Assembly: GCA_951406725.2 (NCBI GenBank)
Contig: OX597814.1
Coordinates: forward strand, 127,224,001 to 127,288,000
Length of the DNA stretch: 64,000 bases
Reading direction: 5' to 3'
Source: Octopus vulgaris
Lineage: Eukaryota
Shown: one piece after another, positions 12,511 through 58,290 of the stretch
Position numbering within the stretch: position 1 is the first letter of the stretch
How the letters are laid out: the number at the start of each line of letters is the position of its first letter
The notes under the pieces: generated by a model
The model's input: only the letters and a program-made list of their open reading frames with translations
Told to the model about the DNA's origin: nothing
Databases searched by the model: none
Position numbers and translations under genes: made by a program

Positions 12511-12698
12511 TTAGTACAAGCCACACCCACGAAGATTGTTTGCAATGATTACATCTGTTACAGCATCAAACACAAACTGAATATTATTGGTATCTGTGGC
12601 ACATGTTTGATGACAGTAGATTTCCTTCGTTGCACTTTTGTTCTTAGCTTCAAACTGGGCCTGAATATATGCAGCAGCCTCTTCATACGTCTGTCTAC
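12511..12698 (-). CDS. GNAO1: G(o) alpha, exon 8 coding part (188 nt including TAA)
   Basis: tttatag|GT AGA CAG ... TTG TAC TAA. Translates (G)[61 protein letters not shown]. Has the G5 box TCAT and the Go C-terminus with the pertussis-toxin-site Cys at -4. Confidence 0.98.
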
Positions 12699-13733: not shown

Positions 13734-13964
<231 letters not shown>

Positions 13965-14969: not shown

Positions 14970-15099
14970 TGTGGTTTCATCTTCATGAAGTACTTGGTCA
15001 TATTCACTCATAGCTACACAGAAAATAATTGCAGTCACATCTTCAAAACAATGAATCCATTTCTTACGTTCCGATCTTTGACCGCCTACATCAAACAAT
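14970..15099 (-). CDS. GNAO1: G(o) alpha, exon 6 (130 nt)
   Basis: tttcag|A TTG TTT GAT GTA GGC ... GAA ACC ACA|gtaagt. Translates [43 protein letters not shown] (G3 box DVGGQ; the HEDETT ending is Go-typical). Confidence 0.98.
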
Positions 15100-15469: not shown

Positions 15470-16946
15470 CACTGAACCGCAAAAGAAAACGCGATTTTTT
15501 CAAATGTCATTTTCATATGGTAAATTCTGAAAATTTATTTCGGGGATGTAAGTGTAAATATTCCAAGACATGCTGGTTTATGGCTGAGACCCAAATTGCA
15601 GGTACCTTTTAACTTTCCCTGAAACGAGATGCCAAAACGCAGCTGCATTGAATGCCATGGGTGGCAGTCACAAACAGTTGTTATGAAATCCGAAATGCAT
15701 ATGCATCACGTGGAGGTTATGGGTATAAAAATCAACTTGAACTGCGTTCCTGGCATTTGTAATTTGGATACATCAAGTATGATCTGATTGTCAGCAGTGC
15801 AGAGAGAACAAGCTATTGGCCAATTGCAAGCAGGGCAGTGTGCCCTGGTTGTTGTGAAAGCTTATGATGTCTATGTCAGCACCATCTATTTACTTGCAAC
15901 AGCAATAGAACATCAACAACACTGCAGGCTGTGCCCACAGAGGGCGCCCCCGGGTGACCACACCAAGGCAGGACCACTTCATCCACCTGCAACACCTTGT
16001 GAGACCATTGGCACTGGACAGTGACGACATGATACAATGTCAACTGGCCACTAACAACCTGTGTTGCTGTGGTCCTGCTCAAGGGCCTGTCCTCACCACA
16101 CACCACTGTCAGGCACGAGTACAGTGGGCTACAAAGCACTGACATTGGTGGCATCAACAATGGAGGTCAATCATCTTCTCTGACGAGAGCCGGTACTGCG
16201 TTTCCACCTCGGGTAGCAGAGTGAAGGTGTGGTGTAGGAGGGGTGAATGCTATAGAGACGCATGTGTCATGGAGAGAGAGACACGTGGAGTGGCCAAAGC
16301 ATCATGGTTTGGGGTGCTATAGGCCTGAATCAGAGAACTGGGTCCTATGTGTTCCAAAATGTTGGTGCAGGCAGAGGGAATGGCATCACAGTGCAGCACT
16401 ATGTTGACCAAATCCTAAGACCTCACATTGTGCCCTTCTTCATGCATCACCATAGCCACATATTCCAGCAGGACAATGCTCTCTCCAACACAGCCAAGGT
16501 CATCATGGACTTCCTGTGTCAGCATAACATCAGGACTATGCTGTGGCTGGCTCTCAGCCAGGATTTGAACTCAATTGAACACCTGTGGGATGAAATCCAG
16601 AGATGGATGAACCAAGTGGTCCCAAGGCTGATAACTTGTGTGGAACTGGAGGCAGCCTTTCTCAGGGTGTGGGCACAGGTGTCAATGGCTTTTGTGAACC
16701 ACCTCATGCACTCCATGTACTGATGGTGTATGGCCGTTTTGAACACCCAAGAAGGGCATACACAGTATTGAACAAGTCACGTCCTACAACCTTGAGATGC
16801 TGGACACATGACAACAACCCATAGACTGTGGTCAAAGTGCATCCAAGAAATTGACTTTATCAGACTTATCAAAATTTATCTGACATTATGAAATCAAAAC
16901 ATATTTCATAGTCGCACATGTCTCGAGTTTCTTTTGTGGTTCAATG
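15470..16946 (+). mobile_element. Full-length but inactive Tc1 (DD34E) DNA transposon, 1477 bp
   Basis: TA-flanked TIRs CACTGAACCGCAAAAGAAA / TTTCTTTTGTGGTTCAATG, with an internal decayed transposase. Confidence 0.93.
15779..16771 (+). pseudogene. Tc1 transposase pseudogene
   Basis: Motifs IIFSDESRY, SIMVWGAI, FQQDNA and SQDLNSIEHLW with 34 residues between the second D and E; ends ...GHTQY*. Several frameshifts and in-frame TGA stops. Confidence 0.92.
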
Positions 16947-22889: not shown

Positions 22890-23018
22890 TTGAAATTTAA
22901 GTTCTTAAATGCAAAATGTACTTCTACAATACCGGTTGTCTTAACTCTAGTTCGCAGAATATCTTGTTCTGTGGGCATGTAATCTTTAGCTCCTAAGCGG
23001 TCAAGGTCATCAAGGAAA
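22890..23018 (-). CDS. GNAO1: G(o) alpha, exon 5 (129 nt)
   Basis: ttccag|T TTC CTT GAT ... AAT TTC AA|gtaagt. Translates (Y)[42 protein letters not shown](K), including switch I RVKTTG. Confidence 0.97.
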
Positions 23019-26101: not shown

Positions 26102-27299
26102 TAAGTGGGGAGGTGAGAAAAAGAGTGAAAGAGGAGAACTAGAGAAAGTGGGAAAGTGAATGGTGTTCATGATAAGGTAAGCCTATGTATAGCAAACAAA
26201 CACACAAGTAACCCCTCCTTCTTTCTTAATTACTCTCACTGTGACAGTGTATTCTAATCAATCTCAAAGGAAAAGTTGACTTTAGCAAGATTTGAACTCA
26301 GAACATAGAGAGCCAGAGCAAATATTGAATTGTTCCATCATTCTCTCAACTGTATCAATTTGTGGCAGTGAGGTTGTATTGAAGGTGTTGCTGATGATTC
26401 ATTTGAAATAGTTAGAAGACAAATGTTTTGGTGGAATACAAGAGATGATAATGAATAATATGAGGCCTAAAGAGAAGCTGGTCATTACCAAATGATCCAG
26501 ATTTATTTATGTTTCTGCATCAAGAATCCTCTAGGTTCAATATTAAATTTTTGCAATGTCAAGGTGACCCAAGCATTGGAGACGAACTGAGACAAATGAA
26601 ACTCATTTAAGCCATGTATCATAAATCCCATAAATCAAAAATGTTGGAACAACTGCAGTTGGGAAATATATCACCTAATGTGTATGTGAACTATATACAA
26701 CAGGAAATGATATTGTTTTAACAGAGTTGTCATTCTCATGAAGTAGAGCCAAGAGTTACCAATGTTTATCACTTGGCCAAAACAAATTTTCTAAAAGCAA
26801 ATTTTGTGGTTATAAGCATACAAACTGTGCAATAAAACAAACCACTTTTAAGGAGTTAGCAGCTTTAAAAAAAGTGTGGAATTTGATAAACAAAATTGAT
26901 GATAAAAGCTCTAACACTAAAACATGTATTTACAACATTACTTTGATGGCAGTTGGAACACACAAGTAAACTGGCAGCATTGTTAGAGTTTCAGAATACT
27001 TTTCATTATTTGTTCTGGCTCTCTATGCTCTGAGTTCAAACCCTACTGAAGCTTGTGATTGATAAAAGTGAAAGTACTAAAGTGGGGCAGTGTACTAGCA
27101 GAACATTAAGAAATCAGAACTAGATGCCCTTGCAATATTTGTCTGGCTATTTGTGCTCTGAGTTCAAATCTTGCCATGACCTGCTTGTCAAAAGATTTTG
27201 AAAGGTTTGAATCATTTGAGAAAAGATAAATATAGAATTTGGTTGGATAACCAGTATATTTTCACTTATTAAGCATGTATTATTTATAAATCTCAATAA

Positions 27300-27740
27300 T
27301 TACAGATGGTTGAAAATGTACAGCAAAATGATGTTTGATAATTTAAAAAGTGCGCTAGCTGAAAATCCTGTTGTGAGGCTATTTCATGCCAACAAAGACA
27401 TCATGTTGACAACTGATGTTAGGGAGCAACCTATAATCAAGAATTTGATCACAAGATAATCCACCAGTGTTATATTTAACTGCTAAATCCATTTATTTAC
27501 ATATTGTGAAGAAAGATTTGCCAAGTGTGGATCACAAACTGTGCCAATCATGATAGTAAATTCCTGCTGAGATCTGATCAAAGATGTTTTGGTTTCATTT
27601 TTAACCAATGTAAAGAACTTTCAAGGGTTACATCATTGAGGATTTCAAGGTATGTCATTCAGATTATGACATTTGATTTTAGCATCACATACACCAGAGA
27701 AAACTTTTTTTCCCATTGATGTGTTCTGGTGGTTACACTT
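27300..27740 (+). mobile_element. Ty3/Gypsy pol (RT connection and RNase H) remnant
   Basis: FDNLKSALAENPVVRLFHANKDIMLTTDV and KFLLRSDQRCFGFIFNQCKELSRVTSLRISRYVIQIMTFDFSITY resemble Gypsy RNase H motifs (TDAS, TDH, RW..L..FD..I.Y). Confidence 0.75.
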
Positions 27741-36073: not shown

Positions 36074-36234
36074 TATTTAGCAGAATCATTTAATTGATAT
36101 TCATTTGATCTTCCGAAACACTCTTGAACTCCTGTGTCTGCCCACAGTCGTTTCATAGCTTGTAATAGTTCATCTGAAAATGGTTCAGTATCTTCCATTC
36201 TACCTATGACATCTAAAACCATTTTGGCATCACA
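36074..36234 (-). CDS. GNAO1: G protein G(o) alpha subunit, exon 4 (161 nt; first coding exon found in the window)
   Basis: Minus strand ttttag|TGT GAT GCC AAA ATG ... GCT AAA TA|gtaagt. Translates [53 protein letters not shown](Y), the Go-type helical domain (DAKMV, MEDTEPF). Length and phase match the conserved Gi/o exon 4. Confidence 0.97.
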
Positions 36235-40306: not shown

Positions 40307-41200
40307 TGAGGTTTGATCAATAAGTATCTGGACTGTTGCCATAGTAATGAAGCTAAAGCATGCAGAGTGAAGCCACTTGGCAAAGATTGACCTTGAACTC
40401 TGCTGTACATGTACACTAAGTTTTAACATTCTAGCTCACTTCTGCTGTTTACAGCAATGCTTGGAAGGAAGGTATGTAGCATGCGATCACTGCATTGACC
40501 ATGACAGAGAAAGTTGTCACGGCAATACCTGTTCAGAGGCCTATGCAAAGTTGCAGAAAGTGTATGGAGAGGAGTGTATGAGCTGCATACAAGTGTATGA
40601 GTGGTTCAGACTTTTCTAAGATGGCTGAAAAAATGTTGATTTTGACGAATGTTCTGGGAGACCTGCAACCAGCAGAACTGAGAAAAACATTGCAGATGCT
40701 TGTGCAGCTGTGAGGGGGAAATTGTCAAATCACCATCTGTGAGTTATCAGAGGATGTGCAGATTAGTTACGGTTCAGTTCACTTCATTATCACTGAAGAT
40801 TTTGGTATGAGACGCATGTCTGCCAAGTTTGTGCCAAAACTGCTTTCAGCTGACTAAAAAGACATTCAAGTTTCAGTTGCACAAGATCTCCTTGATTGTG
40901 TTGAGAATGATTAAAACTTTTTGAAAACTTTGCATAGGCCTCTGAGCAGGTATCACCAAGCTTTTGGCAAAATTTGATGCAGATTCTCTGCTCAACTCTC
41001 TGTCATGGTCAATGCGATGATCACATGCTACACATCTTCCTTCCAAACACTGCTGTAAACAGCGGAAGTGAGCTAGAACATTAAAACTTAGTATGCATGC
41101 ACTGCAGAGTTCAAGGTCAATTGGTGCCAAGTAGTTTCACTCTGTGTGCTTTAGCCTTGTTGCTATGGTAACAGTCCAGATAGTTATTGATCAAACCATG
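40307..41200 (+). mobile_element. Non-autonomous mariner derivative, copy 1 (894 bp, two 5' ends)
   Basis: TA-flanked ends TGAGGTTTGATCAATAAGTATCTGGACTG / CAGTCCAGATAGTTATTGATCAAACCATG. Internal HTH-region fragment EAYAKLQKVYGEECMS..VYEWF ... SGRP ... MSAKFVPKLLS. No catalytic domain. Confidence 0.92.
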
Positions 41201-46468: not shown

Positions 46469-48587
46469 AAAAAAATCAGTGTAACTATAAAATAGGGGTT
46501 AAATAAAAAATCTAGATCTAAAATTTACCAATAACTTGTTAGAAGCAGAATGGTTTGTAGCTTTATAGAAACCCTTAAATCTGATTTAATTATTTTCAAT
46601 GTAGAAAAGTCAAATTAATATATGTAAATTAAAAATTTTAACAGATCACATTACAATTTTCATAGTCTGTTTCCATAGCTCCTGAATACAACACATAACT
46701 AATTTAAAACCTTTAAAAATTGGTGCCAAAATAAAGATGTGCAGGATATATGAAGTGTTTTATTTAATAAAAGAAATACTAAATAGTTTATAGCTAAGAA
46801 AAAAACAAAATAAAACTAGGATTTAACATAGAAAACAGGCAATTAGCATAGATTGACAAACTTTCAGTTTTTACAAGAAGCAAATTTAAGCATACAAGAG
46901 TAAATAAATATCTTCTAACTAGTAAGCACATATTGTATAAGTATAGAGAAAGGGAAAATAATATGTTGAAATCAATTAGAAAGAGCAATGAATGGGTAAT
47001 AGATTATTAAATTTGCTATTAACCAGTCATGTAAAAATCTACATCTTTAAATGGTTTCATTGGCAGCTTGTTATATTCCTAAATAAGTAAAATATATCTA
47101 CTACAAAATTTAGGAGGTATCTATGAAGTGAGGTATTGCTGGTTTACCTATCTGTCTATATAAAATATCGTCAATATCAGTATTGCTACATTTGTTCAAG
47201 ATAAAATGATAGTATCATTTCTGGCTAGAATTTATTTACTAAATCAACAGATTTTAGAAAATTGCTAAAAGAAACTTGGGGTTTAATGTTCAACGGATGA
47301 TTTATAATATCCAAACAAGATGCTTCCTTAAAGCAACAAAAAACTATTTTAAGAGTGAGATAACAGGGTACTGAGATAATACAAGCAGATGTTTTAAAAG
47401 GACCTAGTCTCTCAATAATGCACAATGGAATTATGTTCCTGGATCAGTAGTGAGATAAAAGGACAGGATTTATTCTTAGACTTGGTGACAGAACTATAGT
47501 TTCAATCCTGAGAGGGAGAGGGAGGGAGAGAGAAGTGGGCAAGTAAACAGGAAGAACCAATCTAATCCTTTTGAGTCACTAAATCCAAGACTAAAATAGA
47601 ACATAGAACAAAGAGAGCATGTGAACACACACATGTACACACATAGTCAGACAGTGAGATCAATGTTGTGCTGATCAATAAATAGTTTCAGAATGTCTAG
47701 GTTAAGATGAAATATGTCTCCAAATTGTTTAAAATGTTGACAGGCTTATTAAGTGAAAATCGAAAATACAATTTGCTTTAAAGGAAAAGGCTAATTAAGA
47801 ATTATTGTGATAGGATAAATCAAAGTGATTTCAAATAGAAAGAAAAAAGAAAAAAAGAAAATGAAACAGGAGGTTGCTAAGATATTTAAAAAAAAATTAT
47901 TTAAAATAAAATGCAATCCTTCTTTATTTCAAAATTATATTGCACACATAGGTTTAATCATGTAGTGTTTGCTGAAAGACTCTTTTGAAATTACTAAAAA
48001 GAAAACTATGAGAGCAACCATAAATAAACAGATATACTGGTGCAGACCAAATATTTTATTTCTTCAATCACATTTACAACTTCAGTGTATAAAAATCCAG
48101 TTTTGTCAAGAGTTAAAGGAAACTTTACTTGACCAAACACATAAACCTCCAACAAATAGATGTGAATACAAGATGTTAGCTACATCATTTTACAAATACA
48201 TTAAACATTAATTCTGAACAATAATCTGCCTTAAAATTCAAAATATTACTTATGAATAAGTAAATTTATAGATGAATGACATAAATATAATTAAATATAT
48301 GTTGAGAGATTATTGATAGAAACTATAGAAAGGATGGGATAACTGAATTGCATCAATGTGAAAATAATTTCATGCTTGGAAAAATACCACAAAATTGAAA
48401 TCTATGCTGTGTGTGTATACATAAGAAAGAGACAGAGAAAAGAGTAGGTGCATGTTTTGTTGCAATTATAAAATATGACATGCAATCTGAGTTGTTGATC
48501 ATAAAAGAGGGAAATGAAATACATGTATAGTTTTAATGGAGGCAAAAAATGAACAGAAGACTAATTTGATAGTAAGTATTATCTCAC

Positions 48588-48599
48588 CTGCAGTTGACT
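48588..48599 (-). CDS. Candidate 12-nt alternative microexon of G(o) alpha (SQLQ) in intron 3
   Basis: Minus strand ttctcac-aattttgttttccttttcaaaaag|AGT CAA CTG CAG|gtgaga. Phase 0/0 matches the phase-0 start of exon 4; about 60 nt free of AG precede the acceptor. No transcript evidence available. Confidence 0.5.
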
Positions 48600-50337
48600 C
48601 TTTTTGAAAAGGAAAACAAAATTGTGAGAATATGAATAAACATGAAATTTCAATAAATGTTACTCAAGCTAAAATGCTAAGAGTAATTAATCAGCAGCAT
48701 TAAGACAATGTTATCAAATTGATATCAAAACGGTGAAGCCAAAATTGTAGTAATAAGAATGTAAAAATATTGTTTCTAAAAAGATTCAGCCATAAATATA
48801 GCCCTAGTGATGGGTAAAGTGGAATTTATTGAAGTAGATAGTCAATGAATATATTGAGAAAACTGAGAGAACCAGTTTTATATTTATACACACACATAGG
48901 TAGAAAAGTGGAGAAAGAGTATTCTTCAAAGTATCGTTATGTAGATTTCTTGCAAAACACAACACCAATTTTAACATTCAATTGAATTGATTCCAGATAT
49001 TGCTGGTTTTCTTTTATCAATGCTAATGAGGTGAAAGGTAAAAACCAGTGATGTCTGAACTCATTATGAACAACAACTAAAAAATATGAAGTATTATAGT
49101 ATGATGCTCTACTGCCTCAATCATTTCCAATAATCAAACAATATCATATAAACTTTGTATTCTCTCAAACATAATTAGTTTGTAAATATTACCAATTGAC
49201 AAACTACTGCATGCTGGAGAATGCAGTATGGTCTTCAATTAGCTAGAGATATGACATATCTGGAACAATGAATTTATGAATCACATCTAGTTGTTTGCAC
49301 TCAATCAGAGCTGCTTGAAAGTACACAAGTGGCAGATGATCTATTAATATGCCAACAATGTGAACTCAAAATTAAAATCTGTATAGTAAAAGTGTTAAAA
49401 TACATTGCCACCAGAAAGATAGGTATAAATAAAACATTTAATGTTATTAGCTTAAAATATGTTTCAATACAACAAAAATATTCAAACTAACATGTAATTT
49501 AGTAGGCAAAAATGTAAGATCAATCCACAAAGATGAAAATCAAACACTGAAATCATACAAAACAACAAGATGTGTTTTTATTGAACAGTTAATTTTGAAT
49601 TAGTCCTGATGGCTAGAAATAACACTGAAAATATCCTTAAAGAAAGAGTAGCTTTTATTTTTGTGACTAGGTACAAAAATCTTACATTTTAAGGGAGGTT
49701 TTAGAAATGGAGAATTGTAACATTTACACCTTTCTTAAGAACATTAACATAGGTGCAACAGATATGGCTGTGTGATTAAGAAATTTGCTTTGCAACCATG
49801 TGGTTCCAAGTCTGATCCTACTGCACAGCATCTTAGGCAGGTGACCAATACTCTGTGAATACCTTTGTGGTCAGAAACTGTACCTGTCATATGTGTGTAC
49901 TTGTGTGTACACTTATGTGCGCTTGCATGAATCTGTATTGAGGTGTCTGACGAAGCTGGTGCTATGTTGAAAAGGTAACTTAGCCACTTAATAGAAATAT
50001 ATAACTGAAATAAGTACTGGGGTTGACAAGGTCGACTTGTTGCTGCCCCAGCCTTGTTTGTAACTCAATAACTGAAACCAGTAAAAGAATAACATAAATG
50101 AAATGAAATAGCTTTAAATTGAAACTGCGCTGCAAACACAGCTCAGCAAGAGCTTTCTTGTTGATTTATTAGTGGCACAGATCAGTTTCAAATAAAGGAG
50201 AGTGAACTGAATTGCATGAAATTCCCTATAATTCCACCAATCAATGGTATTTGACAAACCCTACAATTTATTTATTTATAAATAAAACTGAATAAAATGC
50301 AGAAATTATTTGCATTAATTTTGTTTTAATCTTCTTG

Positions 50338-57423: not shown

Positions 57424-58290
57424 TGTGGTCTGATCAATAAGTATCCGGACTGTTGCCACAGTAACAAAACTAAAGCCGCTTGGCACAAATTGACCTTGAA
57501 CTCTGCTGTGCATGCACACTAAATTTTAATGTTCTAGCCTAATTCTGCTGTTTATAACAGTGCTTGGAAGTAATGTGTAGCATGTGTTTGTCGCACTGAC
57601 CATGGCAGAGAAAGTTGAGCAGAGAATCTGCATCAAATTTGCCAAAAACGTGGTGGTACCTGCTCAGAAGCCTACGCAAAGTTTTCATTGTTTTCAACAC
57701 AATCAAGGAGATTTTGTGCAACTGAAACTCCAGTGTCTTTTTGGTCAGCAGAAAGTAGTTGTGGCACAAACTTGGCAAACATGCATCTCATACCAAAATC
57801 TTCAGTGATAATGGACTGAATTGAACAGTAACTAATCTGCATGTCCTCTGATAACTCACAGATGGGGATTTGACTATTTCCCCTCACAGCTGCACAAGCA
57901 TCTGCAATGTTTTTCTCAGTTCTACTGGTTGCAGGTCTCCCAGAACGTTTGTCACTAGTGACATTTTTTCAGCCATCTTGGAAACGTCTGAACCACTCAT
58001 ACACTTGTGTGCAGCTCATACACTCCTCTCCATACGCTTTCTGTAACTTTGCGTTGGCCTCTGAGCAGGTATTGCCATGACAACTTTCTCTGTCATGGTC
58101 AATGCGATGATCACATATTACACATGTTATTTTGAAGCACTGCCGTAAACAGCGGAAGTGAGCTAGAACGTTAAAACTTAGTGCACATGCTCAGCAGAGT
58201 TCAAGGTCAATCTTTGCCAAGTGGCTTCAGACTGCATGCTTTAGCTTCGTTACTATGGCAACAGTCCAGATACTTATTGATCAGACTGTT
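57424..58290 (-). mobile_element. Non-autonomous mariner derivative, copy 2, inverted relative to copy 1
   Basis: TA-flanked ends TGTGGTCTGATCAATAAGTATCCGGACTG / CAGTCCAGATACTTATTGATCAGACTGTT. ORF 57672-57887 (-) contains MFAKFVPQLLSADQK; MAEKVEQRICIKF lies on the opposite strand. Confidence 0.92.

Follow-up and report, generated by a model that had tools for sequence, protein, structure and literature searches.

Intron 3 of the Octopus Go alpha gene contains a 12-nt unit flanked by splice signals

Among the G proteins of neurons, Go alpha is the principal one (PMC12329598). We wondered whether the long third intron of the Octopus vulgaris Go alpha gene conceals an exon that modifies this protein. 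An earlier note, made from a 64,000-nt stretch of genomic DNA (the window) alone, had proposed that a 12-nt unit within the intron is a regulated neural microexon which adds the residues Ser-Gln-Leu-Gln (SQLQ) without a frameshift.

The identity of the host gene is clear. Its exons match PF00503 at 479 bits with Go proteins as the best-ranked solved structures, and exon 4 is 100% identical to P0001 and P0002, two proteins labelled as O. vulgaris Go. The gene lies on the minus strand. Exon 3 is located 2.4 kb past the window end (G000:C1:127290387-127290528) and terminates ...N-E-R-E, followed by gtaggc, in phase 0. Within the window, the 161-nt exon 4 (36074..36234) starts in phase 0 and opens C-D-A-K-M. 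It is followed by exon 5 (22890..23018), exon 6 (14970..15099), exon 7 (13811..13964) and the coding part of exon 8 including the stop codon (12511..12698), all on the minus strand. Exons 1 and 2 were not found within 60 kb upstream of the window (L001-L006), and intron 2 is therefore likely to exceed 57 kb. No duplicate of exons 7 and 8 was detected in the window using tblastn.

Intron 3 spans 30,152 nt and is divided by the 12-nt unit (48588..48599, minus strand) into 17,787 nt upstream and 12,353 nt downstream. The unit lies between the phase-0 end of exon 3 and the phase-0 start of exon 4 and is itself in phase 0/0, so that its inclusion keeps the frame, introduces no stop codon and inserts SQLQ after Glu101. 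The phase-0 start of exon 4 and the in-frame SQLQ on which the proposal had been built are correct, and exon 3, which lies outside the window, also ends in phase 0.

All splice signals that had been read from the sequence are present on the minus strand. A branch-point-like TTCTCAC (48624..48630) precedes a tract of 15 pyrimidines in 16 positions (48606..48621), which is separated by four A's from the AG (48601-48600) of a weak acceptor AAG (48600..48602) with an A-run upstream. Branch points follow the loose consensus yUnAy or the strong form CUAAY; TTCTCAC matches the former, not the latter, and would act as the branch site. The AG-exclusion zone upstream of the acceptor, estimated at about 60 nt in the earlier note, measures 61 nt (48602..48662), and the donor GTGAGA (48582..48587) directly abuts the unit. 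Further downstream, the RBFOX-type motif TGCATG (48479..48484, minus strand), whose role is putative, begins 104 nt past the exon where about 105 nt had been reported, and an additional GCATG is found at +213. Both caveats of the earlier note were borne out as well. The AAG acceptor differs from the six other acceptors checked in the gene (exons 3-8), which are CAG or TAG, and no UGC lies close to the 3' splice site: the nearest TGC is at -97 and the next at -100, with none within 96 nt.

Apart from the Go exons, several traces of mobile elements were seen in the gene. A Tc1-like DDE_3 transposase remnant is located in intron 5 (window 16256-16720, plus strand, E 5.6e-7). Intron 3 holds a mariner-like remnant (57675-58190, minus strand), of which 57972-58190 matches HTH_48 at E 1.3e-7 and two further tested pieces have no Pfam match; a similar stretch lies near 40536-40854. 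In intron 4 (27220-27456, plus strand), RT_RNaseH_2 matches weakly and falls short of the cut-off (E 0.0027), which may point to a retroelement remnant.

Database isoforms exist with and without SQLQ

The earlier note had suggested looking for mollusc Go proteins with a short insertion before DAKMV, and such a protein is on record. P0125, a predicted RefSeq entry of 358 aa, is 'isoform X1' of O. bimaculoides and O. sinensis (XP_014788266.1 and XP_029641587.1, the latter presumably belonging to O. sinensis). It reads ...DNERE-SQLQ-CDAKMV, with SQLQ between E101 and C102 at the exon 3/4 junction, whereas P0001 and P0002 read ...DNERE-CDAKMV. Without SQLQ, P0125 equals P0002 over the aligned protein. 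The databases hold both the inclusion form and the skip forms, which supports the frame-preserving 12-nt exon of Go alpha proposed in the earlier note.

An extension of one of the neighbouring exons was considered as an alternative source of SQLQ and rejected; neither read-through of the exon 3 donor nor the acceptor region of exon 4 codes for SQLQ.

Because P0125 carries SQLQ, P0001 and P0002 do not, and intron 3 possesses one coding site for it, the 12-nt unit is very likely an alternative, frame-preserving cassette microexon that encodes the SQLQ of the 358-aa Octopus isoform. That the unit is a real exon we regard as close to certain. The SQLQ exon is already part of the predicted RefSeq annotations of two Octopus species. 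Alternative isoforms in RefSeq rest on transcript alignments. The annotation of one species may also seed that of another, and the second entry of P0125 may derive from the first.

Two further features of these proteins are worth recording. P0001 departs from the genome-encoded protein (P0002/P0125) near 168, with V in place of E, and near 191, with T in place of N. These changes are unlike A-to-I editing and likely reflect a cloning error or polymorphism. The first residue of exon 4, Cys102 (window 36232-36234), which SQLQ directly precedes in Octopus, is found in Octopus and cuttlefish Go as well as in an Anopheles entry; the usual residue at this place in Go proteins is S, A, T or P.

How readily might such a unit arise by chance? 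Intron 3 contains 18 stop-free units of the form AG-3n-GTRAG, and only one of them, the candidate, combines a strong pyrimidine tract with an AG-free zone of at least 40 nt. The same two filters were passed by 0/24 units of the antisense strand, by 0/18 units of the gene body further downstream (23.7 kb) and by a mean of 0.13 units per intron in 100 Markov shuffles, although the test is optimistic and supportive only, as the thresholds were chosen after the candidate was known. From composition, 0.21 SQLQ-coding places are expected in intron 3 and 0.0005 with AG..GT flanks. There is a single SQLQ-coding site in the intron, and it is the AG/12-nt/GT unit.

A run search with a 601-nt stretch, performed without a control stretch, showed part of it to be present in 19 of 24 rows under four organism codes, with shares of up to 1.00, and we do not count this as evidence. 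No RNA run was listed as containing it, and the runs were coded without tissue. We found no published description of the SQLQ isoform. The 2019 eMIC paper (doi 10.1038/s41559-019-0813-6) may list the exon, as may the supplements of bioRxiv 10.64898/2026.09.05.749416, which includes tissue-specific exons of O. bimaculoides and whose main text contains neither 'GNAO' nor 'G protein'. The accessible parts of PMC11066577, PMC13661766 and PMC12329598 hold nothing on it.

The probable microexon partly resembles neural microexons of the eMIC type

We asked which factors might control inclusion of the exon. Exons dependent on eMIC are characterized by a weak 3' splice site, a long AG-free zone and a long pyrimidine tract (PMC8797185), and the octopus exon has all of these features in its AAG acceptor, 61-nt AG-exclusion zone and 15/16 pyrimidine tract. 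In flies, eMIC exons lie between short introns (PMC8797185), unlike the octopus exon with its 17.8 and 12.4 kb on either side. Among vertebrate SRRM3/4 targets, two classes have a UGC in 79% and 74% of cases, and the motif is not an absolute requirement (bioRxiv 2024.09.17.613571). Because the UGC test failed, we do not class the microexon as an eMIC member; judged by analogy, it likely acts like an eMIC-type neural microexon.

A candidate for the corresponding regulator was found in the genome. The SRRM_C profile (PF15230) matched at G000:C25:37317492-37317626 (L012) with 32.6 bits against a cut-off of 27, covering profile positions 13-55 of 67 and following an RS-rich stretch. This locus probably represents the first of the exons that encode eMIC in octopus Srrm234; the rest of the SRRM_C domain was not found in L012.

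Cassette exons activated by RBFOX carry UGCAUG downstream, and Rbfox is broadly conserved in bilaterians. TGCATG occurs 18 times in intron 3. Because 8% of 150-nt intron windows contain one, the copy downstream of the microexon is weak evidence and not clearly above chance. Help by Rbfox with inclusion is possible, if weakly supported, judging from this motif. The search with PF12414 (Fox-1_C) was uninformative, as it gave no match in the genome or in the controls.

We propose that the weak AAG together with the set-back pyrimidine tract would lead to skipping by default and that a neuronal activator would raise inclusion. This activator would likely be Srrm234-eMIC acting without UGC, possibly assisted by Rbfox at the downstream UGCAUG. 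We consider neural enrichment of the exon somewhat probable.

SQLQ is predicted to lengthen helix alphaB

In an alignment to human Go, SQLQ is placed after residue 101 and before residue 102. We compared AlphaFold models of the two isoforms. Helix alphaB comprises residues 101-117 in the presence of SQLQ and residues 100-113 in its absence, which amounts to three additional helix residues and one additional loop residue, whereas helix alphaA covers residues 63-91 in both models. The inputs were shallow (53 and 51 sequences for the two isoforms) and overall confidence is low (mean pLDDT 60.0 and 61.9; pTM 0.44 and 0.52), while local pLDDT over residues 91-110 is 83-86 and 89-92. Foldseek retrieved G-alpha structures alone for the inclusion model, with a poor global fit (TM about 0.4-0.5). 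SQLQ is predicted by these models to lengthen alphaB by about one turn. The earlier note had envisaged a regulated isoform with an extra turn at the start of alphaB; the extra turn fits the models, and its regulation stays at the level of the proposal above.

The insert site is far in sequence from the nucleotide switch regions. We speculated that a longer alphaB would adjust the binding of helical-domain partners, GoLoco/GPR proteins in the first place, rather than alter the GTP switch. A review holds the alphaA-alphaB and alphaB-alphaC loops responsible for GoLoco specificity and includes alphaB in the interface between Gi and adenylyl cyclase (PMC8252600). Two observations count against a strong effect of SQLQ: sensors that carry NanoLuc (in GaoA) or Venus behind residue 91 still function (PMC10914727, PMC6335053), and the neighbouring insertion at V114-P115 of Gas lies a long way from the RGS interface (PMC12505447). 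We suggest only tentatively that SQLQ measurably affects a partner, and our best guess would be a subtle adjustment of the binding of GoLoco-type proteins.

Inserts at the junction of exons 3 and 4 are unrelated in sequence

To what extent is the junction between exons 3 and 4 variable in other Go proteins? We surveyed the spacing across this region in 194 proteins, 153 of which contain both anchor motifs and were scored. Spacing was standard in 145 of the 153, and P0125 was the sole protein with +4. Three other departures map to the junction, namely aphid X1 (P0149, VRK), Tubulanus X2 (67 aa) and an Anisakis model (P0102, 31 aa). The remaining four comprise two mayfly proteins, in which +2 falls at a different place of the loop, as well as a duplicated and a truncated model. 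Further junction inserts are carried by Atheta X1 (P0204, VRNLN) and Tubulanus X1 (Tubulanus pair P0027/P0195). All of these inserts follow ...ERE, and they are unrelated in sequence to one another and to SQLQ. The insect inserts beginning with V-R have the sequence expected of donor read-through (GTAAG), which suggests this origin rather than a separate exon. The junction is possibly a recurrent splicing hot spot, or the inserts are annotation noise.

Some further variation was noted in passing. The 67-aa insert of Tubulanus is Pro-rich, and Anopheles nili X1 (P0143) has changed sequence across the start of exon 4. Decapod and stomatopod Go (P0012, P0013, P0016, P0037, P0186, P0189) have at least five RefSeq isoforms, and the four compared differ in the N-terminal exon.

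Protein searches with the junction region, which covered 90% cluster representatives, found no further carrier of SQLQ (short search: 1 match/6 candidates; near-length search: 23/24). In the mollusc cluster there was one SQLQ carrier among the 15 of 85 members listed, and P0004, the single model from cuttlefish, belongs to the skip forms. Scanning metagenomes for 19 bases that span the exon gave five loci, four of which were rejected as chance matches (22-28/120 flanking bases alike, 52-64% GC); the fifth, L009, did not yield the pattern on re-reading and was set aside.

Unrelated insertions share the exon 3/4 junction, and the site therefore tolerates change. This bears on the question of whether the microexon matters at all. 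It may be real and yet be included at a low level or without tissue specificity, have no functional effect and represent near-neutral variation at a tolerant surface site. Such an account would accommodate the inserts of aphid X1, Atheta X1, Tubulanus X1/X2 and the Anisakis model, the tolerance of big tags ten residues upstream of the insert site and a weak acceptor without UGC. It is at odds with the identical SQLQ under two species names, with the candidate being alone among the 18 intron units in passing both filters, and with the constant spacing in 145/153 Go proteins, which indicates that length is normally constrained. We consider near-neutrality unlikely, while giving it serious weight.

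The location of the unit allows another explanation. Its terminal CAG abuts GTGAGA after the first 17.8 kb of an intron of 30.2 kb, and CAG|GTGAGA might mainly serve as a recursive splice site for two-step removal of the 30-kb intron, with inclusion of the 12 nt as a by-product. However, every exon ending in CAG presents this pattern, the pyrimidine tract is followed by two AGs before the terminal CAG so that an upstream AG would be met first, and the 12 nt are kept in the database isoform P0125. Recursive splicing as the main role is very improbable.

A wrong prediction of the 358-aa isoform, coupled with a sequence pattern that arose by chance, might be argued from the P0125 entries both being predicted models, from the O. 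vulgaris-labelled proteins being without the insert and from an AG two bases downstream (AAG-AG-T) that could yield a frameshifting 10-nt exon, but this is scarcely credible, since an ab initio error is unlikely to choose a 12-nt piece 12-18 kb from the neighbouring exons which is also the best-signalled unit of the intron, and SQLQ was found from DNA alone and matches the database peptide letter for letter.

We favour the reading of a neuron-biased cassette microexon that would lengthen alphaB and tune helical-domain partners, not the GTP switch, and we rate it as a whole as reasonably probable. A more far-reaching version seems improbable to us, namely that octopuses evolved a neuron-specific microexon in a signalling protein whose length is among the best conserved in the nervous system, that the longer alphaB alters GoLoco/GPR, RGS or adenylyl-cyclase partners and that the junction is a convergent hot spot in octopods, aphids, beetles and nemerteans.

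Comparison with known systems

The existence of the isoform is known to databases, and novelty would lie in its tissue pattern, its regulator, its phylogenetic age and its effect. The part played by the helical domain in partner choice is debated, and a switchable insert of four residues would represent a natural minimal perturbation of this domain. At the level of splicing, the SQLQ microexon would offer a concrete test exon for the control of cephalopod neuronal microexons without the usual UGC. Neural exons that recur in the same genes are a phenomenon already described.

The closest counterpart is P0125, the X1 form in RefSeq under the names O. bimaculoides and O. sinensis. It carries the same SQLQ at the same junction as the O. 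vulgaris unit and is a predicted entry without description. The Go models of aphid, Atheta, Tubulanus and Anisakis share the junction with SQLQ, but the sequences and lengths of their inserts are unrelated. Neural microexons controlled by Srrm234-eMIC or SRRM3-4 resemble the unit in their size of 3-27 nt, frame preservation, weak 3' splice site, long AG-exclusion zone and set-back tract. The Go unit differs from them by the lack of a nearby UGC, a putative branch site that fits yUnAy but not CUAAY, and long flanking introns. With RBFOX-activated exons it shares UGCAUG 104 nt past the donor, a single full motif against a background of about 8%.

Vertebrates also use splicing to diversify G-alpha subunits, as in the long and short forms of Gs-alpha and in GoA/GoB. 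The alpha1-alphaA linker is where Gs carries its insert of about 15 aa; GoA and GoB swap C-terminal exons. The region N66-D85 of Gas is treated in PMC12505447. In contrast to both vertebrate systems, the octopus insert consists of four amino acids in what is predicted to be the first turn of alphaB.
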